Below the pieces are notes generated by a model. That model saw nothing but the letters and a program-made list of their open reading frames with translations. It was not told the DNA's origin and did not search any database. From an uncultured Lentisphaerales bacterium (lineage in GTDB: Bacteria; Verrucomicrobiota; Lentisphaeria; JABSQK01; UBA12247): a stretch of 34,297 bases of DNA. Below, piece by piece: positions 5,916 through 31,862 of the stretch (the stretch's first letter is position 1; each line of letters begins with the position of its first letter). The position numbers and the translations under genes are program-made. The stretch lies in contig CALSSJ010000045.1 of NCBI GenBank assembly GCA_943788985.1, positions 1-34,297 on the forward strand. The letters run 5' to 3'.

Positions 5916-6109
5916 GTGGTTGTAAAGGAAGGCGGCTGCGGACTCAGCCGGTAGGGGGAGCGCACCGTTCTTTACTGCCGGCCATCTCTATCGCGTGTGA
6001 AACTTGGGTACAAGGCGGCCGAAGGGCGCATTTGCAGCAGGCGCGAGTCTCTCCACGGGTTGCTAGATCTGGTCGGAAGCCCAGCGGCGTCGACGCCTGG
6101 CGATGTTTC

Positions 6110-6709: not shown

Positions 6710-6800
6710 GAGAACTCCTTAAGCGAATGGTTGGTGGGGACACTAATACGCCGTGCCGCAGAGTTCGTCCCGTTACATCGGTGATACACGGGTTTTGGCG

Positions 6801-7025: not shown

Positions 7026-7179
7026 CTTGTGGATCGCGGCTTGCGGGTTGCGTGCTATCGAGATTGGAAATATCGTGACCGTGGCGAGGTTTTCCAGTGT
7101 ATTTGCGATAGAATTCGGAAGAATGCTGCGGATACGGCTGATCAACCTGGTTCCCGCATTGCGTTCAGCGTTTTCACTG

Positions 7180-7641
7180 GCAGCGGGCCGCGACGATCGC
7201 AAACCGTCGATCCGCGCTGGGAGGCGACGTGCACTTGGTCGCGACGCGCGCCAGAGGCCCGTTGCAAGCGGGTTTGGGGGCCGCGATACACTACCCGGGG
7301 CTGGCTCGACAATCTCGCGACGACCTTAAGGCGCCTCGCGGCGCACGGGGTGATCCGCGTGAGCGGTGAATACGGCAGATCCATGCTCACGGCACGTCGG
7401 TGTTTTTCATGGCTGTCGCGTCTGCAGGTCTGGGGATTCCACTGGTGTCCGCTGTGTAGCGGTGTTTAGGGCGCCCGACGCTCTGTTAGAATCGTTGCTC
7501 ATTCTGATCAATGATGCATCGTTGTGCGGGCGGCTGGGAGCTGAACTGCTGAGGGTTGTGGTGGCCCGGCATGGTCCAGAGTCGCTTGATCTGCCGCTTG
7601 GACTTTTCTATCGCGAGGTATGCTTGCCGAAGGGCAGTTGA
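7180..7641 (+). pseudogene. Degenerate GT4 glycosyltransferase remnant
   Basis: N-domain-like VHLVATRARGPLQAGL...*IRQIHAHGTSVFFMAVASAGLGIPLV lies almost directly against C-terminal-like DALLESLLILINDASLCGRLGAELLRVV...LFYREV. Contains stops and a frame change. Confidence 0.5.
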
Positions 7642-7699
7642 CTGGTCGACTGTACGGTTATACGGTGTCAGCCGTCACCCACCACCGGAGTCTCAAGCT

Positions 7700-9865: not shown

Positions 9866-9980
9866 CGTGGCGCTTTAGTCGCACTTCAACAGGCAAATTC
9901 TAGCGCTCGATGGCTCGATTTATCGCGACATTCCCCGAAGGCCGCCAAGCTCCTGGCCTCGCGAATAACGAGCTCGCTCG

Positions 9981-10478
9981 GCGGGCGTTGGCTCGAGCTA
10001 TGTCTGGGCGCTGAAGCCTGGCGATACGGTGGCGGCGGTCGGGCTCTTTGGTGATTTTCTGGTGCGCGACACCGAGGCCGAGATGGTGTACCTGGGAGGC
10101 GGTGCCGGAATGGCCCCACTTCGCGCGCATCTTGAGCATCTCCTATAGGCGCTGGAGACGAAGCGGACCGGTAGTTTTTGGTATGGTGCGCGTTCGCGAC
10201 AGGAGCTGTTACATGTGGACTACTTTGAGGAGCTGGCGCAGAGGTATTAGAACTTTTCGTTTCAGCTGACCTTGTCTGAGCCGTTAGACAGCGATGACTG
10301 GCAGGGGCACACGGGGTATATCCATGATGTGTTGCGTCGCGAGTACTTGGCTGCGCATCCTGAACCCGCGACTGTTGAGTATTATCTGTGTGGGCCACAG
10401 CCGATGATTTATGCCGCGCGCTGCATGCTCAATGAGCTGGGCGTTGGCTCAAACCAGATCGCGTTCGACGAGTTCTGA
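9981..10478 (+). pseudogene. nqrF: C-terminal fragment of Na+-translocating NADH:quinone reductase subunit F
   Basis: One frame reads [11 protein letters not shown]...[12 protein letters not shown]...FWYGARS...GYIHDV...YYLCGPQPM...AFDEF with in-frame TAG at 10146 and 10248. The N-terminal 2Fe-2S half is absent. Confidence 0.85.
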
Positions 10479-10505
10479 GCGCGAGGGAAGGGGGGACGCG
10501 AAGGA

Positions 10506-10531
10506 AAAGGATCGACTCGAGTCGATCCTTT
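10506..10531. terminator. Perfect 26-bp palindrome, probable terminator hairpin
   Basis: AAAGGATCGACTCGAGTCGATCCTTT is its own reverse complement and lies 27 nt after the nqrF remnant stop. Confidence 0.55.
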
Positions 10532-10683
10532 CTTGGCCATTCAATGGCTAGCCGGCAGGGACTGCGAACGGGCTCCGCTGTTCCCCAAGATGGCGCTACT
10601 TTGAATCGCTCTAATGGTGGCAGTGAGATCTCAGCAGGGTAGGGTAACATCTTTGGAACAGAACGGAACTAGCAGGAAGAACT

Positions 10684-12559
10684 GTGAAGCGTTATCTGGT
10701 AGTGTCTTTCGTGGTGGCGGCCGTGGCTTGTGGGCAGGGAACTGTCGGATCGTGGGATCTGGCTGCGCTGTATGAGACGCCGAAGTGGGAGCAGACAGAG
10801 CTTGCTGCGAAAGCTGGGATGACGGGCATTTTGTACGAGGGGTTGGTCTATGAGGGGAAGCCCGCGCAGGTTTTTGCCTATTATAGCGCGCCTGCCGGGG
10901 AGGCACCGGAAGACGGCTGGCCCGCGATTGTTTGCGTGCACGGCGGAGGCGGGACTGCTTTCGAGAAGTGGGTGAGACTTTGGAATAAGCATGGCTACGC
11001 AGCCATTTCTATGGACCTGGAAGGCCATCTGCCATTGAAGACAAAGGGCGGTAAAGGGCGCCAGCTCACGCCTACGCCGGGGCCTTCACGTCTCGGAGTC
11101 TTTGCCAAGGTCGAACGACCGTTGGCGCAGCAATGGTATTTTCATGCGGTAGCCCAAATCATTGCTGGGCATTCTTTAATTCGCTCGTTTCCGGAGGTTA
11201 ACGCCGAGCAGACCGTAGTTCATGGGATCAGCTGGGGTGGTACTCTGACGAGCACTGTGATGGGGGTGGATACTCGCTTTAAGTGCGCGATCCCAGTATA
11301 TGGCTGTGGCTTCTTGAGTGACTCAGACGGGCACCAGGGGCGGGCGATTGCGGACGGCGCGCACGCGGATTTTGTAAACGAGCACTACGACGGCTCTGGC
11401 TACTTCGAGAATGTGACCTACCCGACTTTCTGGGTGAACGGCACGAACGATTTTCACTTTTCTATGCCAGCTACGCAGGCCTCAGCCCGGGCGGTGCAAG
11501 GGCCAGCCACGCTGCGCTTTGGCCTGAGGATGAAGCACGGTCATCTGTTTGATGTGGCGGAATACTTTGCCTTTGCCGACAGTGTACTTAAGGACGGAGA
11601 GCCCCTGCTGGAGCTGGGCAAGCCGCAGGCGAACGGGAACGCGGCATCCGTGACCAGCGATTTACTGGGGCAGATCAAGGGGGCAAGATTGTTGTACACG
11701 CTGGATGATGACATCCCCTGGCCGGATAAAGAATGGCAGGCAACACCTGCGACTGTGGACGGCTCCGAGATCAGCGCTGAGCTGCTGCCGGGAACGGTGG
11801 CATTCTTCTTTGAAGCGACTGACAAACGCGGCTTGTTGGTAAGTTCCGAGTACCTGGAGCATGAGGTGCCCGGGGGCAAGAAGCCTGCGCGAGCAGTTGG
11901 TGAAACACTCGACTTTGCGGCGTTGTTTGACGCGGCAGCCGCTGAGGGCGCTGGCACCAAGGTGATCATCGCCGACGACTTCGAAGAGGGAATCAGCGCG
12001 GCGGTCATTGGGATTCTGGAGGTGGACGACGCGGCAGGAAAGGCTGGGATTTCGCACTGCTACGATGAGGTGGCAGCTGGCGGCAAGTCCCTTCAAATCA
12101 CGAATTCAAGGACAGTGAAGCATAGGCACCAGCCGTGCTTGAGCCAATGGTTCAAGGGGGCAGACGTGATCCGCAGCGGGACGGTGGAGGTCTCGTTCGA
12201 CGTGTGGGTGCCGAAGGCGGGCGGCCATCCACTGTCAGTTTTGGTGCGGGACTACACGACCAAGCCATCTCAGGAATCGCTGAATGCTGCCTGCACGTTC
12301 CAGGGAGTGAGAGTCAACGGCAAGAGTATGGCAGTGGCAAACGATGAATGGGTGCACTACGCAATGGCTCTACCAGTCGGGATACCTGATGCGAAGATTG
12401 CACTCACGGTGGTGGATACAAAGTTCGGCACGCGCAAGAGTGAGCACCCGATCGAGAGGCGGGACAGCTCAGGCAGTAAGCTGGGTGGGGCTTTGCCTTG
12501 GGGGGAAGTCTGACGCGACAATCTATCTCGATAATCTGGTGATCAAGGTGGTGGAGTAG
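10684..12559 (+). CDS. Secreted alpha/beta hydrolase (acetylxylan esterase/acylaminoacyl peptidase-like) with C-terminal beta-rich domain; frameshift near 12455
   Basis: VHGGGGTAF, nucleophile GISWGG, PVYGCG, NGTNDFHF. The natural C-terminus (AVSWVGLCLGGKSDATIYLDNLVIKVVE*) is in another frame and ends 2 nt before the GH29 ATG. Confidence 0.8.
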
Positions 12560-12561
12560 CC

Positions 12562-13983
12562 ATGGGCGCCACTCTTGAGGCTGAACGGGCTAGTGAATGG
12601 GCGAGGATGCACGCCACCAAGGCTCCCGCCCTAGCGGCATTTAATGAGGCTAAGTTTGGCATGTTTATCCACTGGGGGCTTTACTCGCTGCCCGGTGGTG
12701 TGTGGAAGGGCGAGCGGATGGAGGACGGCGGCGTCGGTCCCGGCGTGGCCGAGTGGGTTATGCGGCGAAAATCCATCCCGCGAGACGAGTATGCCCAGCT
12801 GGCCGAGGCCTTTAACCCCGTTGGCTTTGATGCAGATGAATGGGCGCAGCTTGCTGCGGATGCTGGGATGCGCTACATGGTCATCACCACGAAACATCAC
12901 GATGGTTTTGCCTTGTTTGAGTCGAACGTGAGTGCTTACAACATCGTCGACGCCACGCCGTTCAAGCGTGATGTGGTGGCTGAACTGCATGGTGCCTGCG
13001 AGCGCACCGGGGTGCGCTTTGGGGCCTACTACTCGCACACGCTCGACTGGTATGACGGCGGAGATTATGGCCTGCAGTACGCAGAGAAAAATGGGGATGG
13101 GACGCCGACCTGCATTGTCAAGGCGGTCAATGATTGGGACCCGTCGCCTCGTACGTTTGATGACTATATGCAGAACAAGTCCGTAGCACAGGTCACAGAG
13201 CTTGCCCAGCGCTACCCGGACCTCTTTTTGGTCTGGTTTGATGGGGCTGGCCACATTCCGGCAGAGATTAGCCATGCGCTCTATGAGGCGATCTACGAGC
13301 ACGCCCCGCAGGCTCTGGTCAATTCGCGGATCAGCAAGGATGATCTTCCGGATAAAGTGTGCGACTACCAGAGTGCTGGCGACAATCACGTGCCCACTCC
13401 GGACGAGATTGAGAGCACCCACTGGGAAACCTGCGGGACGACGAATAACTCTTGGGGATTCAAGAGCTATGACCAGGACTGGAAATGCGCGCTTGAGGTC
13501 CTTTCGTGGTTGGTGGACGTGGTCAGCCGTGGCGGGAACTACCTACTGAATGTGGGGCCTGATGGCAACGGCAAGATCCCGGCTGCGTGCGTGGCGATTC
13601 TGCGGGACGTAGGCGCCTGGATGCGGGTGAACGGAGAGGCTATCTACGGCAGCCGGGCCTGGACCGTGTCGCGCGAAGGGCCGACTCAAGTCGCCCGTAC
13701 GGGGACCGGGAACCGGGCGCAAGCTGGTTTTTCGACGGCATTCACCGCGCAGGATTTCTGGTTCACCAGCAAAGGCAAGACGGTCTACGCGATCGGGCTG
13801 GCTCAGCCTGCGGATCGGCAGGTTCTGGTGCGTTCGCTGGCGGACGTTACGGTGGCTGCAGTCCGGATGTTGGGCAGCGAAGACGCGGTGGACTGGGAAC
13901 AAACTCCGGATGGCTTGCGGGTCCGCCTGCCTTCTTTTTTATCGAAACTTGGATACGCACTCGCAATTAAGGTCACAGCATGA
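12562..13983 (+). CDS. Alpha-L-fucosidase (GH29)
   Basis: AKFGMFIHWGLYS, TTKHHDGF, nucleophile WFDG, VSRGGNYLLNVGP, NGEAIYGSRAW. Confidence 0.95.
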   Translation: MGATLEAERASEWARMHATKAPALAAFNEAKFGMFIHWGLYSLPGGVWKGERMEDGGVGPGVAEWVMRRKSIPRDEYAQLAEAFNPVGFDADEWAQLAADAGMRYMVITTKHHDGFALFESNVSAYNIVDATPFKRDVVAELHGACERTGVRFGAYYSHTLDWYDGGDYGLQYAEKNGDGTPTCIVKAVNDWDPSPRTFDDYMQNKSVAQVTELAQRYPDLFLVWFDGAGHIPAEISHALYEAIYEHAPQALVNSRISKDDLPDKVCDYQSAGDNHVPTPDEIESTHWETCGTTNNSWGFKSYDQDWKCALEVLSWLVDVVSRGGNYLLNVGPDGNGKIPAACVAILRDVGAWMRVNGEAIYGSRAWTVSREGPTQVARTGTGNRAQAGFSTAFTAQDFWFTSKGKTVYAIGLAQPADRQVLVRSLADVTVAAVRMLGSEDAVDWEQTPDGLRVRLPSFLSKLGYALAIKVTA

Positions 13984-16491
13984 ACCAACGAATTCTTCTT
14001 CTTTCCTGTCTTTTCTCCCTGCTGAGTGCGGGCGTGGGCCTGGCCGACGCGCCGCGGCCAGAACGCGCCAACGTGATTCTGCTTTTGGCAGACGATCTGG
14101 GCTGGCAGGACGTAAAGTGCTACGACATTGATGAGCCCACGCCGATGGAAACCCCGCACTTGGATCGGCTGGCGACCAAGGGCGTGCAATTCTGGCAGGC
14201 CTACTCACCAGCGCCGGTTTGTGCGCCTAGTCGGGCCGCGATCCTGAGTGGGCTTCACCCGGCACGTGGGGAGATGACCAGCGTGGCTGGCGGCAGCCCG
14301 CCACACCCCCATCACCCCAGCCGTGCAGAGACGATCGCGCCCTGGTACAGCGCGCGCATGCCGGTTGCCACCTTTACCTTGGCCGAGGCGCTGAAGGCCG
14401 AGGGCTACGTGACCGGGCACAGTGGCAAGTGGCACATCTCGCAGCACCACTACGCCTATCCAAATCCGTTTCATCACGGCTTTGATCAGTCAACGCATCA
14501 TCGCGGTGTCCAGACCCCGATGAAGCCTGATCGCCTGACCGGCTTTGCCACCACGGCGAAGGATGACCCCTATCGCCTGGACAAGAATGGCTTCCCGTTC
14601 GACGTCCCCCAGGATGCGGCGATGACCTTCATTCAGGAGAATCAGGACCAACCCTTTTTCCTTTATTACGCTAGCTGGCTGGTTCACGCGCCCATCGTCA
14701 TGCGCAGCGAGGCGCTGTTGCAAAAGTACGAGAAGAAGCTGGGCGTGACTCTGACTGAGGAACACAAGAAGAACTGGAAGACGCCCGGGCAGACCAATCC
14801 CTTTTACTGCGCCATGGTCGAACAGCTTGACTACTACTTTGGCCAGATCTTTAGCTACCTGGAAACCACGGCTGATCCGCGTTGGCCTGGGCATATGCTC
14901 AGTGAAAACACGTACATCATTTTCACGTCGGACAACGGTGGAATGGAAGGCGGCGGCCACGAGATTTACACGGATAACTATCCGCTCGATCGCGGCAAGA
15001 TATCGACCAAGGAAGGCGGGGTCCGGGTTCCGCTTATTATCACCGGTCCGGGCATTCGCGCTGGTGTGCAATCCGATGTGGTGGTGAATGGCCTGGACTT
15101 TTATCCGACCATTCTGTCCTTGATTGGTGCGAGCGAGCCGGAGGGAAAGCACCTCGATGGCTGCGACCTGACGCCCTTGCTAAAAGAGAATCCCAAGGAT
15201 GCCAAGCTGGTGCGAGATGCTGCTGGCAAGGTCCGCGACACCTTGGTTTGGCACTTTCCGCAGATGGAGAATACGGCGAGTATTCGAGTTGGGGACTACA
15301 AGCTGATTCGCCGTTTCCATGACGACAGTCGTCAGCTGTATCGACTCTACAACACTGATGCCGGGAGTGTGCAGCGCGGCGATATCGAAGAGAAGCATGA
15401 CCTAGCTGCGGCGATGCCAGAGATGACGAAGCAGCTTGATGCCAAGTTGAGCGCTATGGTCAGCGAAATGGGGGGAAGAACGCCGTACTACAACCCGAAG
15501 TACTTCGGCGAGCTCCCGCACAAGGAGAAGGCCCCGACCGTGATTTCCTGCGAACAACGCGACCGCAGGGTGCACGTGCGCTTCAAAGACAATGGCGCCA
15601 AGATTGCCTTTGCAGACCTGTTGTACAGCCAAAACGGGGGAAATCGGATGGAGGAATGGCAGCGAGTGTCGGCCATTTCATTGACGGCGGGACGAGGCAG
15701 TGTTCGAGCTTCCCGGTTCAAACCAGCCATTACTTCGTAAATTTGATCGATGAGAATCACTTTCTGGTAGACTACCCGGAAATAGATGAGCCGAAGAGGC
15801 GTAAGGAGAGTACCCCCGTTCAGCGCCTATGCTCTTGCCGCCGGGTACCCGCAGCCGGGGCCCGGGAGCGCCGCTGGACCTGAACAAAGTCTTTGGCCAG
15901 CTTAACCAGGCTGACGCTAGCGTCCAGGTGCTGCTAAGCGAGAGCTTCGAAGACCCGACTGCTTTGGTCCTCAAGTCCAGCGGGGCGGGTGTTTCCGTGG
16001 TTGATACGATTGCCGCGACTGGAAGGCGTTGTCTGCACCTGCTGGACGAAGCAGGCCTGGAGCGCGAATGGATGCCGCTTGTCGATCAAGGGTTTGAGAT
16101 CCCTGCTGCCTGGGAGGCTGGAACCTTTCGGCTGGCCTTTGACTTGATGCTTGATCAGGAGGCCCCGGGCGTGCTCAGCGTCATGCTGCGCGACCAGAGG
16201 GAGAATGCGGCGGAGATCCTGGTAGGCAAGGGACTTACGGTGGATGGCCTGGCTGCGACAGCGATTGAGGCTGGCGTCTGGTACCACGTGGATTTTTCCT
16301 ACCGCTTTGGGGCAGCTGCCGACTGGATCCTCACTGTCACGGTTACGGCCGCGGATGGGCGCACGGCGAGCAGCGAGTTCCCGCTTGTGAATCGCGGGTT
16401 TCGGCGGGCGACTATGCTCGGATTGGCAGGACTTGGCGCGGTGGGCAGTCGGGTCTACATCGACAGTTTGGTGGTGCGCGTAGAGGAATGA
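13980..16491 (+). CDS. Formylglycine-dependent sulfatase (S1) with C-terminal accessory domains; frameshifts at ~15680-15870
   Basis: Signal peptide; LADDLGW, CAPSR (CxPxR), GKWH, TSDNGG, EGGVRVP. Continues through frames 15656..15883 and 15829..16491. Confidence 0.88.
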
Positions 16492-18435: not shown

Positions 18436-18794
18436 GCGGACCTCGCAAGGGATGAAATTGGGACGCTGAACCTACGCCGAGAACCTTGGAATGCCACGTC
18501 GGCGATTGGATGGAATGGCGGGAGGGATCGGACGAGTGCGCTGTTACCCAACGACCGTGCCCGGCTGCGGGCACACAACCTGCAGGCTACGGAGTGCGCC
18601 TCGAAAGAGGCCCTGGAAGGCCGGGTTTGTGGGCGCCATTGGTGGATTTGTGGCTGATTTGAATCAAGGAATTTCGAGTCAGTTTCCGGTTTGTAATTTC
18701 GGGTTGGGAGTTTTCAGGTACTGTAGGGGTTTGAGTAGGTTCCGCGTCGGAACGCCACGCACTATTGAGAGGTCATTTGCCATCCCGCCAATCC

Positions 18795-21383
18795 ATGAGT
18801 GATCTATCGCAGGGCTCGATGCCAATCAGCGGTAACATCACGCATACCCGAAAGACGATTTCCCAGCTCCTTGAAGAGCGGGGGCTGAGCACGGGTGTGC
18901 CCATGCCGTTGTCGGTGAATGTGGATACGGATCCGAGCGAACGCTACCAGATCGGTCGCCTGATTGCGACTGGCGGGGTGGCGGAGATTTTTGAGGCGGT
19001 GGATACCGGCAGCCGGCGCGTGATGGCGATGAAGGTGATGTCGCCCGGCAAGATCAGCAATGATGCCGATCTCGTGCGCTTTGTCGAAGAGGCCCAGATT
19101 ACCGCGCAGCTCGAGCATCCGGGGATTCCACCAGTCTATGATTTTGGCGTGGATGCCGACGGAAACGTCTATTACACGATGAAGCTGGTGCCGGGGCGAA
19201 CGTTGGAAGCAATTCTGAGCGATATTCGCGAGGGCAAGCAAGAGACGATTCGGAAGTACGGTCTCGCGCGGTTGTTGTCGATCCTGATGCAAGTCTGCGA
19301 TGCCGTGGAGTATGCGCACTCGCGAGGGGTGATTCACCGGAATTTGAAGCCGGAGAATATCATGGTGGGCAGCTACGATGATGTGCAGGTGATGGATTGG
19401 GGCGTGGCCAAGGTCTTGCCCAATCGCGGGGTGACAGATCGCCGGACCGTGGATCAGACGGTGGATGGAGAGATGATCGGCACGCCGGAGTACATGGCGC
19501 CGGAGCAGGCTTACGGCAAGATCTCCGAGATGGATGAGCGAAGCGATGTCTACGCGCTAGGCGGTGTGCTCTATGCCATCCTGACGCTGCGGCCGCCTGC
19601 GACGGGAAACCAAGTGAACGAGACTCTGCTGAAGATTGTCGAAGGCAACTTGGTCTCGCCGCAGGTCTACAGCGATCGTAGCATCCGGGTCGGGCCGCAG
19701 CTGAAGCGTGGCGGCGCGGCTGCGACCGATAATGACGAGATTCCGCTGTGGCATTGTCCGCGGTTCGAGATTCACCCGGCATTGACCAAAATCTGCCTTA
19801 GGGCGCTGGCCTTGAAGCCAGGGGCCCGCTACGAGAGGGTTCGGGATCTGCGCCATGCGTTGGACAAGCATCGTGGCGCATTCGGGCTTATGCCTACAGA
19901 CGAGTCATTTCTGGCGGAAGTGTTTTGGCTGTTTCGCCAACATCCCTACGTGAGTGCTCTGGCGGCCGGTATACTGACTGCTCTCGTAGCGTTGATGGGA
20001 CTAGCTGGCACGAATTATCTGGGGGAGATCGGGCAGGCACGGGACACCACTGTAGCCAATGAGCGGCAGTCGGAGCTGATGCAGAAAGAGATCGCGCGGC
20101 TGCGACCGCCAGAGATCAAGACCACCGCGCCACGCAAGCCAACCTTCACGGACCCGCGCGATGTCTGGGGCTATCTGGGCCGGGAGCTGGCCGCGCAGCC
20201 GGACTCACGGGCGATGTTTTGGCTGGATCGTGGCCGGCTGGCGCTGGGGCGGCTGGAGCTGAACAAGGCGCGCGACGCATTCGACAAAGTACGGCTCAAG
20301 GCCGAAGATAACGAACCAGTGCTGCGCCTCCTACGGCATTACGAACGCTTGCATCGGAACGTGGCCCAACGCCTCGCCTACGCAAATCCGCTCGAGCGGC
20401 CGGTGCCGTTCCCAGGGGATGAATCCGAACGTGAGGATGAGTTGGATCGACAGTTGCTCACGATCCGGAAGGAACTGACTGTGGCGTTGGAGGAGCTGAA
20501 GACAGCGAACCCGGGGCTGAACCATTACAAGCTGGCAGTATCACGGGCGGGCGTGCAGGTGACGCTGGACGGGCCTACGGTCACCACGCTCGCGGCGCTC
20601 AAGGGGCAGCTGATTACGTCGCTGTATCTACTGAATACGAATCTGACGTCGCTTGAGCCATTGCGGGGGATGCCGCTGCGGCATTTGAAGCTGTATCAGT
20701 CTTCAGAAGTGACGGAATTGGCCCCCTTGGCCCGCATGCCGCTGGATTCGTTAGACATCGCTGGAACCGCAGTTTCGGACCTCGGGCCGTTGGCCGGCAT
20801 AGCACTGAAACGGTTGTACGCAGATCAGACCAGTGTGGCCGATCTCGCGCCGTTGAAGGGGATGCCGCTGGTACGTCTGAGCATTGGGCAGACCCGCGTA
20901 TGGGATCTGGGACCGTTGCACGGGCTCCCGCTGGAGCAACTGTCGATCAGTGGCACAAAGGTTCGGGATTTGAGCGCATTGCGCGGCATGCCGCTCACGG
21001 TTTTAGAGGCGAACATGGCCCCGGTACGCGACCTTAGCCCGCTGAGGGGGCTAAGGTTGGAGAAGCTGTTCTTGCAACGCACCGAGGTTGTGAATCTCAC
21101 ACCGCTTTTGGGCCAGTCAATTACGACGCTGAACCTGCGTGGCACCAAGGTGCGTGACCTGACGCCACTCGCTGGCTTGCCCTTGGAGCAACTGTATCTG
21201 GATGGCTGCCCGGAGGTGGATCAGCTCCGGCCGCTTATTCGTTGTCAGAAGCTGAGGACTTTAACCATTCCGCGCCATGTATCGGATATCGACCAGTTGC
21301 GCTATCTCAGTGAGCTTGAGTTTCTAAGTACGACGCACATTCGAAAGCCCGCGCGCCAGTTCTGGAAGGAGCGTGAACAGTGA
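18795..21383 (+). CDS. Hanks-type Ser/Thr kinase-like receptor: kinase - TM - helical region - LRR (catalytic loop HRN)
   Basis: MAMK, FVEEAQ, HRNLKPEN, DWG, GTPEYMAPEQ, SDVYALG; TM YVSALAAGILTALVALMGLAG; about 10 LRRs. Confidence 0.9.
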   Translation: MSDLSQGSMPISGNITHTRKTISQLLEERGLSTGVPMPLSVNVDTDPSERYQIGRLIATGGVAEIFEAVDTGSRRVMAMKVMSPGKISNDADLVRFVEEAQITAQLEHPGIPPVYDFGVDADGNVYYTMKLVPGRTLEAILSDIREGKQETIRKYGLARLLSILMQVCDAVEYAHSRGVIHRNLKPENIMVGSYDDVQVMDWGVAKVLPNRGVTDRRTVDQTVDGEMIGTPEYMAPEQAYGKISEMDERSDVYALGGVLYAILTLRPPATGNQVNETLLKIVEGNLVSPQVYSDRSIRVGPQLKRGGAAATDNDEIPLWHCPRFEIHPALTKICLRALALKPGARYERVRDLRHALDKHRGAFGLMPTDESFLAEVFWLFRQHPYVSALAAGILTALVALMGLAGTNYLGEIGQARDTTVANERQSELMQKEIARLRPPEIKTTAPRKPTFTDPRDVWGYLGRELAAQPDSRAMFWLDRGRLALGRLELNKARDAFDKVRLKAEDNEPVLRLLRHYERLHRNVAQRLAYANPLERPVPFPGDESEREDELDRQLLTIRKELTVALEELKTANPGLNHYKLAVSRAGVQVTLDGPTVTTLAALKGQLITSLYLLNTNLTSLEPLRGMPLRHLKLYQSSEVTELAPLARMPLDSLDIAGTAVSDLGPLAGIALKRLYADQTSVADLAPLKGMPLVRLSIGQTRVWDLGPLHGLPLEQLSISGTKVRDLSALRGMPLTVLEANMAPVRDLSPLRGLRLEKLFLQRTEVVNLTPLLGQSITTLNLRGTKVRDLTPLAGLPLEQLYLDGCPEVDQLRPLIRCQKLRTLTIPRHVSDIDQLRYLSELEFLSTTHIRKPARQFWKEREQ
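20580..21270 (+). repeat. About 10-11 leucine-rich repeats of ~21 aa
   Basis: Consensus LxPLxGMPLxxLxLxxTxVxD. Confidence 0.9.
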
Positions 21384-24025
21384 AGCTGGATCCAAAGCAA
21401 TTTCGGGAAGGCGCGTATCGCTTCCAGGTCGAGTTCGAGGGCTCGGGCATCCCTAGGCTGGTTCGCAGTCGTGGGGTATCCGCAGGGATCTCGCTGGATA
21501 ACGAGCGGTCCGGCTATGAGCAGGATTATCGCTACGAGCTGCGCGAGCTGATCGCCGAGAGCGAATCCGGCCCCATCTTTGCTGCGTTCGAGCACAATTG
21601 CCGCCGGGAGGTAGCCTTGAAGCTGTGCTGCTCGCAGGTTGCCACGGATGAGATCTTAGCAGAATTCGCTAGGGAAGCACAGATTGCGGCGCGGGTCGAG
21701 CATCCGGGCGTCCTGCCAGTTTACGAACTGGGGCTCGATGAGGTGGGCAACGCATTCATTGCCATGAAACGCATTCACGGCCGCACGTTGCAGCAGATTC
21801 TGAGTGACATTAAAGCTGGCCACCACAAGGCTGTGCAGCGCTATCCGCTGGATCGCTTGTTGCAGATCTTTGCCCAGGTCTGTGAAGCCATCGAGTATGC
21901 CCATTCCCAAGGCATCGTGCATTGCGATCTTTGCCCGGAAAATATTCTGATTGGCAAGTACAACGAAGTCCGCGTGATGCGCTGGCGCGATGCCTTCCTC
22001 CTCGACGGAGGCCCGAATCAGCCTGGCGGCAATCGTCATAATCCCAACGCTCCGGACGAGCATCCAGTAGCGCAGGCACTGGACCCCAGCAAAGTCTCCA
22101 TGGCCGAGTGGGCCGGAGCGCAGCAGGACGACAAGGCCCACTCGCCAGTGAATCCGTTGCGCTTCGCCTGCCTGGCCCCGGAGCAGACGGCAATCGAGAA
22201 CGCCAGCTGTGGTCGGGCTTCGGACATCTATGCGCTGGGCGCGATTCTCTACACCATTCTCACTCTGCGTCCGCCCGTGAAGGGAGTGAACAAATCTGAG
22301 GTGTTGCGCAGTATTTTGGCGCACCGCATCACGCCTATCTCGGGTATCAATGCCGAAAGCCAACGGGCCCGGAAGGGACGCCGTGGCGTGGAATTGGCGC
22401 ATTGTCCGAACGGCGAAGTACCAGCTGCGCTGGCGGCGATTGCCCTGAAGGCGCTGACGTCCAATCCCACGGACCGCTATGACAGTGCACGAGTATTGCG
22501 AGAGAGAGTCGCAGGTTGGGAGCGGGAACGTGATCGCAAAGCGGACAGGACGAGCTTTTTGAGCGACTGGTTGCGCTTCGGCAAGCGGCATCGGCGCGTG
22601 CGGCTGCTGGCGCTGGTCACGTTGCCCATCGTGGTCGGGGCACTGTTTGCAGTCAACGCCGCGCTGGTGGGCGTTCTACGGGCCGCGGAAGAGGGGCGCC
22701 AGGAATCTACCGAGGCGCTGACGGAGCTGACACGTGAGCGAGATGCGCTGGACTTGCGGCGGGGGTATGGACGTTCTATGGAGTTGCCGGAAGAGCAGGC
22801 CTACTGGGTGTTGGCGCAGGAGGCATTGAAGGAAGGTGAGCCGAGCGTGGATGCCTCGATTGCTAGGGCACAGCTAGCGATCGCAATGGGGAACATGGAC
22901 GAAGTTCGGAACCTACTCGGCAGTGTTTTCGAGGCTGTGGATGATCGTAGGACGTACCAACATGCATGCGACTTGTACGTTGCGAGCAGCGCGACCCGAG
23001 GGCCGCCCAAACCTATCTCGTTCATGCCACAACGGGCCAAGGCTGGACCAAGCGAAGATGAGTACGGCCAGGTCCGGGTTGCCTGGAACGCAGACGACTT
23101 TGAGATGACTTGGCGTCAGCTAAAGATTGAACTGGAGCGGCTCAATCCAGCACTGTCGCTGCCTGATGATGCCTTGACCGTAGAGGACGGCGTGGTCTCA
23201 TTCAGCGCTGTCAATGAGATTAATCTGCATGACATTCGCCCCCTGGCCGATCTGCCGATCTCGCGTCTGGAGTTGGCTGGGACCGGGGTGGAGGACCTGA
23301 CGCCGCTGGCCGGGATGCCGTTGGTGAGTGCGAGCTTCTTTGAGTCGGTAGCAGTGCGGGATCTGACCCCGCTGGCGGGATTACCGCTCCGCTCGCTAGA
23401 CATCAGCCAGACGCTGGTCTCTGATCTGACGCCGCTAGCGGGACTACCACTGACAGAGTTGTTTCTCGACGGTGCACCGGTGCTCAGTCTGGCCGTACTA
23501 CAAGGAATGAAGTTGACATCGCTGAGTGCGAGTGACACGAGGATCCGGAGTCTGAAGCCGCTGGCTGGAATGTCGCTGACATCACTTGGTGTGAGTCGGA
23601 CGCAGATCGCGAGTCTGGCACCGTTGGCGGGAATGCCTCTGGAGGCATTGGCGCTTTCACAGACTCTGGTTGGCGATGTGAGCCCGCTTAAAGGGATGCC
23701 GCTGAAGGTTCTGATGCTGAACGATACGCTGGTCGCAGACCTGCTGCCATTAAAAACGTTGACCTCCAAGAGTCTGTCGTTAAATCTTTCCAATACGCAG
23801 ATTCGCTCGATTGAGGCGCTCGCCGGCCTGCCATTGAAGCAAGTCTATCTGCAGGGCTGCAGCCGGGTTAAGAGCGTTGCCCCTCTGGCTTTCTGTGTCA
23901 CCTTGCAGCACCTGACCATGCCCCCTGATGCCGCGGGAGAAGAATATCTCAAGGATCTGCCCAAGCTCCACACCATCACGGACGAGCGTGGAGTGCGTTA
24001 CAGTCGCAAGGAATTCTTTGAGTAG
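21380..24025 (+). CDS. Second kinase-like receptor: degenerate kinase - TM - helical region - LRR (pseudokinase)
   Basis: VALK, FAREAQ, HCDLCPEN, MRWRD in place of MDWG, CLAPEQ, SDIYALG; TM VRLLALVTLPIVVGALFAV; about 10 LRRs. GTGA overlap with the upstream stop. Confidence 0.88.
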   Translation: MKLDPKQFREGAYRFQVEFEGSGIPRLVRSRGVSAGISLDNERSGYEQDYRYELRELIAESESGPIFAAFEHNCRREVALKLCCSQVATDEILAEFAREAQIAARVEHPGVLPVYELGLDEVGNAFIAMKRIHGRTLQQILSDIKAGHHKAVQRYPLDRLLQIFAQVCEAIEYAHSQGIVHCDLCPENILIGKYNEVRVMRWRDAFLLDGGPNQPGGNRHNPNAPDEHPVAQALDPSKVSMAEWAGAQQDDKAHSPVNPLRFACLAPEQTAIENASCGRASDIYALGAILYTILTLRPPVKGVNKSEVLRSILAHRITPISGINAESQRARKGRRGVELAHCPNGEVPAALAAIALKALTSNPTDRYDSARVLRERVAGWERERDRKADRTSFLSDWLRFGKRHRRVRLLALVTLPIVVGALFAVNAALVGVLRAAEEGRQESTEALTELTRERDALDLRRGYGRSMELPEEQAYWVLAQEALKEGEPSVDASIARAQLAIAMGNMDEVRNLLGSVFEAVDDRRTYQHACDLYVASSATRGPPKPISFMPQRAKAGPSEDEYGQVRVAWNADDFEMTWRQLKIELERLNPALSLPDDALTVEDGVVSFSAVNEINLHDIRPLADLPISRLELAGTGVEDLTPLAGMPLVSASFFESVAVRDLTPLAGLPLRSLDISQTLVSDLTPLAGLPLTELFLDGAPVLSLAVLQGMKLTSLSASDTRIRSLKPLAGMSLTSLGVSRTQIASLAPLAGMPLEALALSQTLVGDVSPLKGMPLKVLMLNDTLVADLLPLKTLTSKSLSLNLSNTQIRSIEALAGLPLKQVYLQGCSRVKSVAPLAFCVTLQHLTMPPDAAGEEYLKDLPKLHTITDERGVRYSRKEFFE
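23231..23920 (+). repeat. About 10-11 leucine-rich repeats of ~21 aa
   Basis: LTPLAGMPL/LTPLAGLPL...DISQTLVSD units. Confidence 0.9.
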
Positions 24026-26712: not shown

Positions 26713-29700
26713 ATCGAACCGTTCCGACTTACCATCCTTGGTGCCCTTCTTCTTGCGCTGGGGGTCAGTGCGGCCGGCCAGCCGATAAAGGCGCTGTTGA
26801 TTACCGGCGGCTGCTGCCACGATTACCCACGTCAACAAGAGATCATCCCCAACGGGATTGCAGCCCGCACGAGCATTCCGATCGATTGGACAGTGGTTCT
26901 GGACGCCAGCAACGGCGGCAAGATTCCCTTTCAGGCCAGCGCAGACTGGGCCAAGGACTACGACGTGGTGGTGCATAACGAATGCCACGCAGGTGTCACG
27001 GACAAGGACTGGGTGGAGAACATCCTCAAGCCACACCGTGAAGGAACGCCGGCAGTGGTCGTTCATTGCGCGATGCACAGCTACCGCACTGGGGACGAGG
27101 CCTGGTTTGACTTTCTTGGGGTCACCAGCCACCGCCATGGAGCTCGCTATCCCTTCGAGGTACGGAACCTCGCCACCGATAATCCGATCATGAAGAGCTT
27201 CGGTGATAGCTGGATGACACCCCAGGGAGAATTGTATCTCATCAGCAAGCTTGGAGAGAGAACCACACCCCTCGCCCATGCTTTTAGCCGAGATTCCAAG
27301 AAGAATGAAGTCTGCATTTGGACCAATCAGTATGGCAAGGCCCGAGTGTTTGGCACGACTCTGGGACACCATAACGAAACCATGGCTGCGGCGCCATTCT
27401 TAGATACGGTTACGCGCGGATTGCTGTGGAGCGTGGACCGACTGGACGACGTTGTATTGCGGGACGCGCCCGCATTCGACCTCACTACGGTTGCGCACAT
27501 CGCAAGCGCCACGCGGAAGCCAAAGAAGGGCAAAAAGGCGAAGAAACCAAAAGTACAGCTTCCTACGGGACAGGCTCCAGATAATCTCGCGCTCGGCAGG
27601 AAGGCCAGCGCGCCCAAGAGCCAGAAGCCCCATCCGCCGCAGAACGCGGTCGATGGCGACCTCGAGACCCGCTGGTGCAGTCCAAACGGGGCCGCTGGCC
27701 ATCCCTGGCAGGTCGATCTAGGCCACCCCCAAGAACTCTCCGGAGCCAGGATCGTCTGGGAAGCAGGGGTGCTCTATCAATACACAGTCGAAGGATCCGC
27801 CGATGGCAAAACCTGGTCTATGCTGAGCGATCAGCGCAAGCGAACGAAGCGCGAGCAGGTTCACCAGCTGACGTTCACCGCCAAAAGTATTCGCCACATT
27901 CGGGTAATTACGACCAAACTCCAAGGAAGCTGGGGCAGCTTCTGGGAGTTCGAAGCGCATGGCACCAAGCTGGTCGACGGTACGGCAGTGGCAGCCAAAC
28001 CAAAGAAGGCCAAGAACAAGGCCGAACCCAAGAAGGCAGAGGGCCTCTCCATAAGTGGGCCTAAGGGCTTGGAATTCAGCGAGTTTTCGGGGCCTGCTCG
28101 CACGCCGTGTGTGGCCTGTATTGGAGTCACGCCCGCCGGTGTAGTGTACGCGGGGGTGGATCGCATCGGCTCGTTGGGCAAAGGCTCCGGCAAAGGCAGG
28201 ATCATTCGCCTGACTGACGCCAATCATGACGGCGTCCACGACTCGCACAGCGTCTTTGCGGTACTCGACAACCCACGCGGCATTTTGCCGTTTGGCGATA
28301 AGGTCTACGTGCTCCACACCGAATGGAGCGGCGAGAAGACCTTTGTGGGCATGCATCTTTCCGTGTTGACCGATGCCAATGCTGACGGGAAGGCCGACGG
28401 CCCGCCCCGGTACTTGGTCAAGGATATCAGCACGCGAAAATCCAATGAGCAGCGTGGTGCAGACCACACCACGAACGGCATCCGCATGGGTATCGACGGC
28501 TGGATTTATGTGGCTGTAGGCGACTACGGGTTCGTCGACGCAACGGGCTCTGACGGCACGAAGTTAACGATGTACGGCGGCGGCATCGTCCGCGTACGCC
28601 CGGACGGTAGCGAGCTTGAAACCTACACGCATGGCATGCGGAATATCTATGACGTGGCCATCGACCCTTATCTGAATCTCTTCACCTTTGGTAACACCAA
28701 TGATGGCGGTGGTTGGAACGTCCGGTTCAATCATCACGTCCAAACCGGCGAGTATGGCTACCCAACGCTGTTCAAACGCTATACCAGCGAGATCATTCCT
28801 GCATTGGTCGACCTCGGCGGTGGCTCCGGAACTGGCTCGATGTTCTTTGACGAACCTGGCTGGCCCGCGGCGTTTACCGCAGTTCCGATGATGTGCGACT
28901 GGGGGCGGGGGCAGCTCTTTATTCACCGCGTCACCGAGGACGGCCCGAGTTTTACCCAGGAGCAGGAAGCGTTCATCAATTGCCGGCACATTACCGACGT
29001 CGATTGTGATGCATCCGGGCGGCTCTTTATCGGAAGCTGGGGAACATCGGGATTTAGCGGTGGCAGCGACGGCTTTGTTGCCCGGGTTGTCCCCAAAGGC
29101 TGGACCTACAAAGAGTTCCCAGCACTCAAGGGCCTGAATGATGCCGACCTTTCAGACCTCCTAACCAGCGCCAGCACGAAGGCCAGGCAGCATGCCCAGC
29201 AGGAGATTCTCCGGCGTGGCGGCAACGGCGCTGAGGTCCGCAACATTGCGCTCGATGCCAGTGTCGATCCCAAGGCGCGGATCGCGGCGATGTATACGCT
29301 CAAGCAGCTGCTGGGCCCCGGCTCACACGCTGACCTTCTTGCATTGGCGGATGATTCTGCGGTCGCCGAGCATGCGCTCCGGGCGCTTGCTGATCGTAAG
29401 TCGCAGGTTGCCGGCGTTCCGCTCAGGCCTTTCATTGAGGCGTTGACCAGTGACAATCAGCGCGTTCGCTCGGCTGCGGCCGTGGCCTTGGGCCGTCTTG
29501 GCGACAAAGCCGCTGCCAGCGCTCTGCTGTCCATCTCAAACCCTCCTGCTGTCGATCCGCTGCCAGTGCAGAAGCAGACTACGGGGGCAGTCAAGAAAAA
29601 CAAAGCCAATCAGAGCCCCCTGATTACCGGCACCAAAACCCACACCTTTGATGTGGAAATCAAGGGCTGGAAGACGCTCGTGCTAAGCGTGGACGATGGC

Positions 29701-31056
29701 GGCGATACGACCGGAAGTGATCACGGGGCTTGGTTCGAGCCTACCCTCGTAAAAATAGACGGCTCCATCTTGAAGCTGACCGACTTGGATTGGACTAAGG
29801 CGACGCAGGGCTGGGGCAGTACTGGCGTAGGCATCAGCCCCACCGGAAACCCTTTGGCGCGGGCGGACAAAAAGCCGTTAGCTTTCGGAATCGGCACGCA
29901 TTCTGCAGGGGCTATTACTTGGCGTTTGCCGTCGGATGCGGCCCGCATCAAAGTCGAGGCTGGCCTAGCAAGCACGGCTGGTGGAGGGGGGAGCGTCCGA
30001 TTCCACGTGGGGCAGACGGCACCCGCCAAGGTCGGGAACGCGGCAAAGAACGTAATTGCCGAGGGTCCTCACGCAGAGCCCAACCCTGACAGCATCGTCC
30101 CTCATGTCGCCCGTCAGGCACTCGTTGCCTTGCGTGCTGGCGAAGCTTGCGTTGACGCCATCGGTGGCCCGGATCAGGCAGGCGCCCTGATGGCCATGCG
30201 CTACATGCACAGTCCGCAGGTCGTAGACGCTTTAATTGCTCGCCTTGAGTCTAGCAGCGACTCCGACACTAAGCAACGCATCGCTCGTACGCTCGTGCGT
30301 CTCGCAAATCGGGAGAAGCCCTTCACTGGCGAGACTTGGTGGCACACACGTCCGGACACACGCGGGCCCTATTACTACCCGACGCCTTGGGACAAATCTG
30401 CAGCCATTGAGGCCGCATTGCTCAAGGCGGCTGACAGCGGGGATCCCGCGCTCAGGTACGTCATTGCTGCGCTCGCCACCAAAGATCGCGTAGAGATCGC
30501 CGCGCTTAGCAAGACAAAGGCAGCAACCAAAGCCGCCGCTCCGGAGCAGCCCAGTGTGGACCTTGAGGCAATCAAAAATCAGCAAGGCCAGATCGGAAAG
30601 ATGGGCCTGGAAGATATCCTCATTGCCATCGGCAAGATCAAGGGCAAGCCCAGTAGAGGCCGTGCGCTGTACACTCAGCAGGGCTGCATGGCCTGTCATG
30701 CCTTGAGTATGGATGAGGTCCAGAAAGGCCCGTACCTCGGGCAGATTGGCAGCATTATGGATGCCGAGAAGATTGCCCATAGCATCCTGCGTCCCAATGC
30801 CGAAATTTCGCAGGGCTTCAAGACCGCAATGATCCGGACTAAGAAGGGTGCCATCCATCTTGGTTTCGTTACCGAGCGGTTGAGTGATAGCATCACGATC
30901 CGGAACATTGCCGGCATGGCTACGGTGCTCGATCCTGCGGACATTGCAGAAGAAACCCTCATGCCTACTTCCATGATGCCGCCCGGCCTTGCCAACGGCA
31001 TGTCGCTCCAAGATTTTGCCTCACTGGTGCACTTTCTTGCCTCAATGAAAAAGTAG
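26713..31056 (+). CDS. Large secreted multidomain protein: ThuA - F5/8C - PVC-type dehydrogenase propeller - HEAT repeats with NPCBM insert - heme c (CxxCH)
   Basis: TGGCCHDY/TTLGHHNET (ThuA); AVDGDLETRW...WQVDLG (F5/8C); DHTTNGIRMGIDGWIY, GMRNIYD; DHGAWFEP, GIGTHS (NPCBM); CMACH and SMMPPGL. A signal peptide is encoded from 26713, but the first canonical start is TTG 26797. Confidence 0.88.
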   Translation: MEPFRLTILGALLLALGVSAAGQPIKALLITGGCCHDYPRQQEIIPNGIAARTSIPIDWTVVLDASNGGKIPFQASADWAKDYDVVVHNECHAGVTDKDWVENILKPHREGTPAVVVHCAMHSYRTGDEAWFDFLGVTSHRHGARYPFEVRNLATDNPIMKSFGDSWMTPQGELYLISKLGERTTPLAHAFSRDSKKNEVCIWTNQYGKARVFGTTLGHHNETMAAAPFLDTVTRGLLWSVDRLDDVVLRDAPAFDLTTVAHIASATRKPKKGKKAKKPKVQLPTGQAPDNLALGRKASAPKSQKPHPPQNAVDGDLETRWCSPNGAAGHPWQVDLGHPQELSGARIVWEAGVLYQYTVEGSADGKTWSMLSDQRKRTKREQVHQLTFTAKSIRHIRVITTKLQGSWGSFWEFEAHGTKLVDGTAVAAKPKKAKNKAEPKKAEGLSISGPKGLEFSEFSGPARTPCVACIGVTPAGVVYAGVDRIGSLGKGSGKGRIIRLTDANHDGVHDSHSVFAVLDNPRGILPFGDKVYVLHTEWSGEKTFVGMHLSVLTDANADGKADGPPRYLVKDISTRKSNEQRGADHTTNGIRMGIDGWIYVAVGDYGFVDATGSDGTKLTMYGGGIVRVRPDGSELETYTHGMRNIYDVAIDPYLNLFTFGNTNDGGGWNVRFNHHVQTGEYGYPTLFKRYTSEIIPALVDLGGGSGTGSMFFDEPGWPAAFTAVPMMCDWGRGQLFIHRVTEDGPSFTQEQEAFINCRHITDVDCDASGRLFIGSWGTSGFSGGSDGFVARVVPKGWTYKEFPALKGLNDADLSDLLTSASTKARQHAQQEILRRGGNGAEVRNIALDASVDPKARIAAMYTLKQLLGPGSHADLLALADDSAVAEHALRALADRKSQVAGVPLRPFIEALTSDNQRVRSAAAVALGRLGDKAAASALLSISNPPAVDPLPVQKQTTGAVKKNKANQSPLITGTKTHTFDVEIKGWKTLVLSVDDGGDTTGSDHGAWFEPTLVKIDGSILKLTDLDWTKATQGWGSTGVGISPTGNPLARADKKPLAFGIGTHSAGAITWRLPSDAARIKVEAGLASTAGGGGSVRFHVGQTAPAKVGNAAKNVIAEGPHAEPNPDSIVPHVARQALVALRAGEACVDAIGGPDQAGALMAMRYMHSPQVVDALIARLESSSDSDTKQRIARTLVRLANREKPFTGETWWHTRPDTRGPYYYPTPWDKSAAIEAALLKAADSGDPALRYVIAALATKDRVEIAALSKTKAATKAAAPEQPSVDLEAIKNQQGQIGKMGLEDILIAIGKIKGKPSRGRALYTQQGCMACHALSMDEVQKGPYLGQIGSIMDAEKIAHSILRPNAEISQGFKTAMIRTKKGAIHLGFVTERLSDSITIRNIAGMATVLDPADIAEETLMPTSMMPPGLANGMSLQDFASLVHFLASMKK

Positions 31057-31114
31057 CAGTACGTTGTCCGCTCGTAATCACCCAAATCGTCGATCTAGAT
31101 AAAAAGGACGCTCC

Positions 31115-31862
31115 ATGCACGCCACAGTTTCTTCTCCCGCTGCGCTACCTTCCGTATCCCCAATTTTTGTCCGCCTTGCCGTTCTTGGCAGCGTTAGTAT
31201 TCTGCTCGCCATTGCCTTTGGCATGGCGGACCTGTACCAGAAGCTTAGCCAAGCCCGCCCTCCGTCTGCGAGCGGGCCGACTCTTGCTGGCGCAGCCGTG
31301 GGTGACAGCGACGCAGGCAAGGCGCACTACATGACCTGTGCGCTTTGTCACGGCGACAAAGCACAAGGAAATCCTCTGATGAAGGGCCCAGCACTAGCGG
31401 GCCAGTCCGCCTGGTACGTAGCGGGCCAGCTGAAAAGCTTTCGGTTAGGGCATCGTGGTGTGGATCCCAAAGACCTGCTTGGCATGCAGATGCGTCCCAT
31501 GTCCATGGTCTTGCCGGACGACAAGGCTGTTCAAGACGTGGCTGCCTACATCGCCACGTTACCGGTAGCCAAGCCTGCGACTACGCTGACAGGCGGCGAT
31601 GTCGCTCGGGGTAAGATTACTTTTGCCGTTTGCACAGCCTGCCACGGTGCTGATGCCAAAGGCATCGAGGCCATGGGCTCCCCGACGCTGCGCAACCAGC
31701 ATGATTGGTACCTGCTTAGCTCGCTGAAGGCCTTCAAGGGCTAAGATTCGCGGATCCCACCCGGATGACGCCTTCGGCAAAACCATGCAGCCTATGGCTG
31801 CCATACTTGCTGACGAGACCGCGATGAAGGATGTGATCGCCTACATTCAATCGCTTAAGTAG
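31115..31862 (+). CDS. Membrane-anchored di-heme cytochrome c (c4/c553-like); frameshift at ~31740
   Basis: N-terminal TM; CALCH and CTACH; PALAGQSAWY; QMRPM. The second domain finishes in another frame (KIRGSHPDDAFGKTMQPMAAIL...IAYIQSLK*). Confidence 0.88.

Follow-up and report, generated by a model that had tools for sequence, protein, structure and literature searches.

A tandem receptor pair in an uncultured Lentisphaerales bacterium: a predicted conserved pseudokinase beside a kinase paralogue with a private Asp-to-Asn change

The window analysed here is a stretch of 34,297 nucleotides (nt) from an uncultured Lentisphaerales bacterium (CALSSJ010000045.1, contig C45 of a 4.58-Mb metagenome-assembled genome (MAG), 83.6% complete). 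Its open reading frame (ORF) map exhibits two open, same-strand ORFs with intact translations, R1 and R2, each predicted to encode a receptor in which a kinase fold is followed by a transmembrane segment, a helical region and leucine-rich repeats (LRRs). As an original prediction made from the letters alone had it, these are two diverged paralogues (862 and 881 amino acids (aa), 32% identity end to end, E-value = 2e-111) joined by a GTGA overlap, and both kinase folds have lost residues expected of an active enzyme. Does such a pair signal through two dead kinase domains by design? Comparison with the orthologues points to another answer. To judge from sequence, the conserved design is an active kinase (R1-type) accompanied by a pseudokinase partner (R2-type), because the R1 orthologues are canonical in all four cases, the R2 lesions are shared by all five sequences of its clade, and the two clades are sisters with mirrored topologies. 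The double-dead state, found in one of the five pairs, is a private feature of this species. The proposal of a both-dead pair is supported for R2, but as a design it is not supported.

Catalytic lesions of R1 and R2 against their relatives

R1 (18795..21383; all R1 and R2 features given here lie on the + strand) is identified by its ORF, Pfam matches and alignment as a receptor-like Ser/Thr kinase paralogue of 862 aa from an ATG codon, a TTG at 18765 being also open. Its kinase domain (aa 49-365, 18939..19889), predicted to be cytoplasmic, matches Pfam Pkinase (PF00069) with 122.5 bits, the cut-off of 31.7 bits being exceeded by both R1 and R2. The residues K80, E99, H181-R182, K185 and N188 are all kept, as is an intact DWG motif (D201-W-G, 19395..19403), the equivalent of DFG. 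The catalytic loop reads HRN (CAC CGG AAT, 19335..19343), with Asn183 (codon AAT, 19341-19343) in place of the catalytic Asp. The Gly-rich loop reads ATGGVAEI (18966..18989), the third Gly of the orthologous xxGGMGAI being replaced by Ala. Seven distinct R1 variants with at least 90% identity span the site, and all of them have HRN; the remaining three members of the cluster of ten are fragments that do not reach it. The same AAT codon is read in contigs from three more runs (X17, X18 and X9). HRN is therefore no assembly error.

R2 (21380..24025) is a predicted receptor-like pseudokinase paralogue of 881 aa with a GTG start, which is supported by the conservation of its N-terminus from residue 4 onward in the orthologues P0123 and P0265. 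Its pseudokinase domain (aa 51-380, 21530..22519; Pkinase 85.2 bits, in two stretches) retains K81 (beta3 Lys), E99 (alphaC Glu) and H181. The lesions are those listed in the original prediction: a degenerate Gly-loop (AESESGPI, 21554..21577), a catalytic loop HCDLCPEN (21920..21943) in which Cys replaces both the Arg and the Lys (C185) while Asp183 and Asn188 are retained, and RWR (R201-W-R203, 21980..21988) in the place of DFG/DWG. The activation segment contains an insert (aa 206-262, 21995..22165) with a clade-specific Q.GGNRH motif. HCD and RWR are found in 14 of the 15 listed members of the R2 cluster, the one exception being a fragment without this region. The N-lobe has a solved kinase, PknB (1mru), as its closest structure (E-value about 4e-22). 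At window position 21675 (R2 codon 99), one RNA-library contig of run X17, with a depth of 6.3, exhibits an A>G change that would turn the alphaC Glu99 into Gly; since only one contig has it, a rare variant or an error could be the cause.

A catalytically competent Hanks kinase possesses the VAIK-Lys, the HRD-Asp and the DFG-Asp, and neither R1 nor R2 has all three. Both are pseudokinases by the sequence definition quoted in 10.1101/2025.01.12.632604, in the text available, which asks that at least one of these three triad residues be missing.

These lesions stand out from the family background. Among 240 aligned homologues, which are the best HMMER matches so that lesion frequencies among them are lower bounds, DWG is the norm (231/240), HRN occurs once, in R1 itself, and RWR is confined to R2 (two entries) and P0123. 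All of the 232 background homologues have the HRD Asp that R1 is missing. Set against the 57 kinase columns in which those 232 sequences reach a conservation of at least 90%, R1 departs from six columns, four of them in common with its closest orthologue P0003. Two departures are private to R1, one at the third Gly of the Gly-loop and one at the HRD Asp, whereas P0003 has no private one. R2 and P0123 depart from 15 columns each, including the activation-loop Thr and the GT motif. A second background was provided by 80 metagenome loci with 88 kinase ORFs, three of them from the R1/R2 species. In the other species, 48 of 48 kinase-LRR ORFs and 36 of 37 other kinase ORFs are canonical, although these loci were chosen through a peptide pattern including AMKVM, so that their beta3 Lys is canonical by construction. 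The lesions of R1 and R2, as far as such counts can tell, exceed chance.

The two receptors differ in how their lesions are distributed among orthologues. Four R1-type orthologues were identified, P0003 with 58% identity and P0004 to P0006 with 44-45%. All four exhibit the canonical set (GGMGAI, K, E, HRDLKP[DE]N and DWG), and none has HRN. For R2, a word-based search returned P0123 (49% identity), a profile search of 1.84 billion representatives returned P0265 (38% identity), and a search with P0265 as query added P0403 and the partial P0404, so that the R2 clade comprises five known sequences. All five have HCD in the catalytic loop, a degenerate Gly-loop, the Q.GGNRH insert and a distinctive juxtamembrane motif. 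None of them has the catalytic-loop Lys (C, R, R, R, R) or the Asp and Gly of DFG, which are replaced by RWR twice and by HWA three times. The beta3 Lys, the alphaC Glu, the HxD Asp and the catalytic-loop Asn are retained in all five.

R2 accordingly belongs to an old lineage, and the constraint on its kinase domain described below agrees: by these criteria it is an evolutionarily conserved pseudokinase. The Asp-to-Asn change of R1 is private to one species and fixed there, in seven of seven variants. The original prediction had pointed out that the lesions do not overlap, and had named canonical HRD/DWG in orthologues as the outcome that would speak against it. For R1 that outcome is what the orthologues exhibit, and the lesions did not arise as a complementary set.

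Probable joint inheritance of the pair and rates of change

A phylogenetic analysis places R1 with P0003, next to P0004-P0006, and R2 with P0123, next to P0265 and P0403; the two groups are sister clades with mirrored topologies. The sister relationship is supported by an SH-like approximate likelihood-ratio test (SH-aLRT) value of 97 in a quick 49-row tree, by 100/99 in a 26-row LG+G4 tree built with a careful search, and by an SH-aLRT of 99 in a 20-row tree computed with LG+C20+F+G4 and posterior mean site frequencies (PMSF), from which a long branch belonging to a further paralogue of the genome, on contig C12, was left out. The states of one canonical kinase and one dead paralogue are found in four orthologous pairs. 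Adjacency is directly seen only in this species, in the window and in the metagenome locus L036 (6 differences in 5231 nt). In the other species, R1-type and R2-type sequences come from contigs of equal size: 24674 bp for P0003 and P0123, 7807 bp for P0004 and P0265, 8101 bp for P0005 and P0403, and 7375 bp for P0006 and P0404. The labelled homologues are mostly from Verrucomicrobiota or Planctomycetota, the MAG of P0006/P0404 being labelled Rhodothermales.

Searches of genomes and metagenomes added no further pair. A search for R2 orthologues across 60 related GTDB genomes yielded nothing beyond N-terminal matches, none above 37% identity. When all genome contigs were scanned with the R2 alignment, identities did not exceed 36%, and no genome-resolved orthologous pair came to light. 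Of the 80 loci that a metagenome scan with the R1 alignment returned, L035 and L036 alone are of the R1/R2 species, and the contigs of P0004-P0006 were not among the loci.

Counted from the duplication node of the PMSF tree, R1 has a path length of 1.16 and R2 one of 1.92. This excess has a definite location. For the same species pairs, the LRR identities of the two types are nearly equal (54/44/40/77% for R1-type versus 57/44/43/76% for R2-type), whereas the kinase-domain identities are 68/63/62/93% for R1-type versus 51/43/41/86% for R2-type. The kinase domain being less conserved in R2-type and the LRRs equally so, the excess change of R2 is confined to the kinase fold. Even so, the R2-type kinase domain is conserved like its own LRRs, and more than its own helical and juxtamembrane parts. 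The original prediction had offered neutral evolution of the kinase domains as a further test, and R2 withstands it: with 41-51% identity, matching its own LRRs, its kinase domain is constrained. On this pattern we take the R2 kinase fold to be repurposed and not drifting.

R1 exhibits no comparable change. Its kinase domain is 68% identical to that of P0003, and the identity to P0004 is 64% for R1 versus 62% for P0003. Tajima counts with P0004 and P0005 as the outgroup give 23 unique changes for R1 versus 26 for P0003 (chi-square 0.18), and the tip lengths in the LG+G4 tree are 0.32 and 0.35, respectively. Such figures indicate an R1 kinase domain without acceleration.

A kinase with a proposed non-catalytic co-receptor, and the alternatives

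The remaining features of the two proteins are those of single-pass receptors. R1 has a transmembrane helix at aa 383-407 (19941..20015), its sole hydrophobic segment, followed by an extracytoplasmic helical region (aa 411-590, 20025..20564), delimited by alignments and without a Pfam match, and by an LRR domain (aa 591-862, 20565..21380; LRR_4 match) of about ten 21-22-residue repeats with a Cys-containing cap. In R2 the corresponding parts are a transmembrane segment at aa 405-436 (22592..22687), again the sole hydrophobic one, with five Lys/Arg on its N-terminal side versus two on its C-terminal side, a helical region recognized by alignment (aa 437-610, 22688..23209), and an LRR domain with cap (aa 611-881, 23210..24022; LRR_4 match), also of about ten 21-22-residue repeats; among solved LRRs, a 'Rab family protein' (5il7) and internalin A come closest to it. 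The R2 start overlaps the R1 stop in the sequence GTGA (21380..21383), and a Shine-Dalgarno-like AAGGAG (21366..21371) lies within the 3' end of R1, 8 nt upstream of the R2 GTG. Translational coupling of R1 and R2 is indicated by these two signals.

The explanation that we prefer, with a probability of roughly one half for the whole of it, is an operon in which R2 is the non-catalytic co-receptor of R1, R1 itself having been weakened in this species. A two-gene operon would yield two paralogous single-pass membrane receptors, each with a cytoplasmic N-terminal kinase fold and, outside, the helical region and then the LRRs. The pair would go back to one old duplication and have been inherited together since. 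R1-type would be an ordinary DWG-type Hanks kinase. In R2-type, which has lost the activation-loop Thr and the GT motif, normal Mg-ATP coordination would be impossible. The two ectodomains would sense jointly, and the R2 pseudokinase domain would regulate or scaffold the R1 kinase domain, in the manner of HER2/HER3 or BAK1/BIR2. To this, the R1 of the present species would have added Asp183Asn and the Gly-to-Ala change of the Gly-loop. Since its ATP- and metal-binding residues are all retained, it is expected to bind ATP and to perform at most a weak phosphotransfer, like HER3 or JAK2 JH2, the module being still in use. The anatomy, the lesions and their conservation, the phylogeny and the rate patterns are observed; a physical R1-R2 complex, the direction of the regulation, the residual activity and any ligand are what we infer. 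A more specific version is a good deal less probable: an obligate heteromeric LRR receptor, in which the R2-type member allosterically controls the paralogous kinase and which in this species would signal without a catalytic base, either by ATP-dependent conformation or by scaffolding to a third kinase.

Several observations weigh against this explanation. Pairing in the other species is suggested only by the equal contig sizes. In 4 of 78 other-species loci, kinase genes stand side by side on one strand, all of them canonical, and since canonical tandem kinase-LRR pairs exist elsewhere, tandem position alone is no sign of a complex. No FHA or PP2C gene that could serve as a partner is linked to R1/R2 in the neighbourhood within the window. 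Within the species, R2 has more variants (four synonymous and eight non-synonymous) than R1 (one and one), the ratio of non-synonymous to synonymous polymorphism (pN/pS) being about 0.67 for R2; the numbers are tiny (12 variants for R2, 14 for R1 and R2 together) and not conclusive. The population is very uniform, as seen in the few differences from L036, so that the Asp-to-Asn change may be recent, and the lack of acceleration of R1 may in that case be uninformative. Finally, pieces of both genes are represented by RNA-library contigs of two studies, which is no proof of transcription; one of them (X17 record 5, 21208-21749) crosses the R1/R2 junction, without being proof of a single transcript.

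It is possible, though we would not expect it, that the pair of this species is wholly non-catalytic, the two dead folds forming a scaffold or allosteric switch that recruits a canonical kinase or another effector. R1 and R2 each lack a triad or catalytic-loop residue, their frames are intact in all full-length variants, and the two private changes of R1 at conserved positions both fall in ATP or catalysis elements. As to a kinase to be recruited, 22 of the 34 kinase domains in the genome that can be aligned in full are canonical at five residues, including a paralogue of the same architecture on contig C16, and an LRR-pseudokinase locus on contig C12 adjoins a fusion of a response-regulator receiver (REC) with a kinase. 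Against this reading, no third kinase is linked to the R1/R2 locus. Moreover, only one pair of five is double-dead, and HER3 and JAK2 JH2 still bind ATP and have some activity in spite of a single Asp-to-Asn change, according to the text of PMC4718504 that was available.

We think it unlikely that R1 and R2 are independent tandem paralogues, with different ligands and separate or homodimeric action, their adjacency being a mere relic of duplication. The adjacent canonical kinase genes of the 4 loci among 78 speak for this reading. Against it stand the translational-coupling overlap, the apparent retention of the pair in both deep lineages with mirrored trees and equal ectodomain rates, and the consideration that a pseudokinase without catalytic output needs some partner.

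A module in decay, in which the Asp-to-Asn change would be a recent inactivation of a system that the species no longer needs, is quite improbable. The change is indeed private to one species, the population is nearly clonal, and the R2 pN/pS is as given above. However, no frameshift or stop occurs in 7 full-length R1 variants or in 13 full-length R2 variants, R1 has two nucleotide variants in 2586 nt, and its kinase core has one polymorphic residue in 317 (among five equal-length variants). The R1/R2 stretch also occurs in 10 marine or estuarine studies with a total of 20 run rows, three of which may be the source itself, and the coverage of both genes by RNA-library contigs adds a weak argument of the same sign.

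The least probable alternative by our estimate is that R2-type is an atypical active enzyme, a CASK-like Mg-independent kinase or another nucleotide-dependent activity: the residues retained in all five members, the Arg that four of the five have at the position of the catalytic-loop Lys, and the precedents of pseudokinases later found active (CASK in PMC4718504, SelO and SidJ in PMC12599244, both in the text available) are outweighed by the Gly-loop degenerate in all five, the loss of both Asp and Gly of DFG with a replacement that is not conserved (RWR versus HWA), and the absence of the activation-loop Thr and GT motif.

Genomic surroundings and relation to known systems

R1 and R2 are flanked by a divergent gene for a DUF2079 membrane protein and by a convergent AraC regulator gene. 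The intergenic region upstream of R1 (18575..18794, + strand, from the ORF map), on the 5' side of which lies the DUF2079 gene, presumably contains the promoter; a sigma-70 consensus scan of this region gave no match on the + strand, so that the promoter is inferred only, and promoter and terminator consensus scans of the locus gave nothing usable. Farther away in the window are fucosidase, sulfatase and esterase genes: the segments 7556-16491 and 26797-31744 encode SASA and acetyl-xylan esterases, an alpha-L-fucosidase and a sulfatase, as well as a 1419-aa ThuA/F5-F8-C/NPCBM/HEAT/cytochrome-c protein. Such a gene content points to a marine bacterium that degrades sulfated, fucose-rich glycans. 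The original prediction had raised a possible sensing of other cells, predators or phage, and this neighbourhood holds no hint of a defence role: no defence gene is linked to R1/R2 within the window, and PADLOC gave no match among the neighbour genes. R1/R2 were themselves considered as anti-phage defence kinases (PADLOC PD-T4-6, mad6 and PglW). These matches are confined to the kinase domain (aa 47-294) and are of a generic-kinase kind, and the defence reading was dropped for this reason.

Besides the canonical domains, the other 12 of the 34 kinase domains of the genome have at least one lesion. By this count the kinome is rich in pseudokinases, within the range of 0 to 67% given for bacterial kinomes in the available text of PMC12599244. 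The lesion-bearing domains include the second kinase domain of a 1459-aa protein with two such domains, on contig C26. Other LRR-linked degenerate kinases are encoded on C12, C36 and C43. The C12 locus (L115, G000:C12:133000-146000; ORFs 4045-6465 (-), 6547-7713 (-), 7757-9118 (-) and 9284-10096 (+)) is a second LRR-pseudokinase locus. It contains an 806-aa paralogue with the kinase, transmembrane and LRR parts, 27% identical to R2, whose kinase is nearly fully degraded (Pkinase 34.5 bits), then a 388-aa kinase-like protein without the beta3 Lys and the DFG Asp, then the fusion of a receiver with a canonical kinase, and a divergent gene for a 270-aa kinase-like protein with Arg for the beta3 Lys. 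On C36 (L116, G000:C36:92000-103000, 2366-8608 (+)) a 2080-aa protein combines an N-terminal degenerate kinase (LHCGLSPSA / GRWELA) with C-terminal LRRs, and a 986-aa ORF on C43 (C43:63166-63915) has a similarly degenerate kinase.

In other metagenomic organisms, tandem and sometimes overlapping canonical kinase-LRR genes are found in L099 (5726-8449 and 8448-11468), L039 and L052, and in L100 (2352-5603, 6554-9322 and 9426-13547). Many relatives have an N-terminal FHA domain in the Pfam lists. P0054 (938 aa, from the Joint Genome Institute) is a kinase-LRR protein with several lesions (AVRY, LHGDLTPAN and GWG); it is unrelated to the R2 clade, and in the tree it clusters with P0124. LRR-linked pseudokinases thus have more than one origin. 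Three proteins of the DWG family, P0168, P0171 and P0209, lack the beta3 Lys (AMAM/AMAV/VMAT) and have a Lys inside the Gly-loop (GGMK/GGLK), a relocation that recalls WNK kinases.

Among the closest described systems for R1 itself is HER3, in which Asn815 represents the same Asp-to-Asn change, as the original prediction had noted; HER3 binds ATP with a Kd of about 1 uM and has weak trans-autophosphorylation, and the JH2 domain of JAK, with the same change, binds ATP and has low activity (PMC4718504, in its available text). R1 shares with HER3 the retention of ATP-binding residues, and the HER2/EGFR-HER3 pairs share with the R1-type/R2-type pairs the combination of paralogous single-pass receptors, one a conserved pseudokinase and the other an active kinase. 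There is no homology as a pair, however: R1 and R2 are Ser/Thr Hanks-type proteins with DWG, the kinase being N-terminal and the LRRs C-terminal, and their heterodimerisation and allostery are predictions. The conserved dead partner also differs, R2 having DFG and Gly-loop lesions and not HRN.

BIR2 is an LRR receptor-like kinase family pseudokinase constitutively bound to active BAK1, as described in the same text (PMC4718504). BAK1-BIR2 resembles R1/R2 in the LRR ectodomain, the single transmembrane helix, the cytoplasmic kinase fold and the combination of a dead with an active partner. The HCD of R2 is in addition a non-RD catalytic loop, and non-RD loops mark plant pattern receptors. In contrast, R1 and R2 have the opposite polarity, with the kinase at the N-terminus, are of independent origin, and possess LRRs of the 21-22-residue bacterial internalin/Roco type.

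The PknB-type kinases of M. tuberculosis provide the closest solved kinase domains (1mru and others) and the same layout, from an inner N-terminal kinase through the membrane to a sensor, but R1 and R2 have LRRs only, without PASTA or beta-propeller sensors, and DWG instead of DFG. The best NCBIfam models for R1 are PknB_PASTA and PknD, the scores of which (202.9 versus a cut-off of 450, and 201.9 versus 839) are far too low; neither R1 nor R2 reaches an NCBIfam equivalog cut-off, R2 scoring below R1.

The bacterial pseudokinase families described are ActPs1-3, GLW, CP1, DYD and DLHK, together with EssB/YukC and MviN (PMC12599244). Like R2, they are membrane-associated Hanks folds with degraded catalytic motifs and presumed scaffolds. 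Experimental work on bacterial pseudokinases is almost lacking. Each of the described families consists of single proteins, and its defining trait is a lost VAIK-Lys, which is substituted in all seven families (PMC12599244; 10.1101/2025.01.12.632604; as far as the available text of both goes). The five R2-type sequences and R1 keep this Lys, and R2-type therefore fits none of the seven, in a comparison made at the level of motifs. The terms LRR, Planctomycetes and Verrucomicrobia have no occurrence in the main texts of these two articles, and the literature searched, outside subscription journals and supplements, holds no description of a bacterial LRR-linked kinase/pseudokinase pair. What is new here, on the reading of the motifs given above, is a pseudokinase clade that keeps the VAIK Lys and is inherited with an active paralogue, the two having matching LRR ectodomains.

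Genetically, such a pairing of R1 and R2 would carry the signature that marks HER2-HER3, BAK1-BIR2 and other receptor/co-receptor systems, independently arisen in bacteria. Of the five natural pairs, one has a dead kinase and four have a live one; together they make up a comparative series for pseudokinase allostery in bacterial Hanks kinases, and for what remains once the catalytic base is lost. The organism is uncultured and marine, and the practical impact is limited for now. If the more specific version given above is true, the locus represents a bacterial counterpart of eukaryotic receptor/co-receptor signalling, with this species as a natural experiment.

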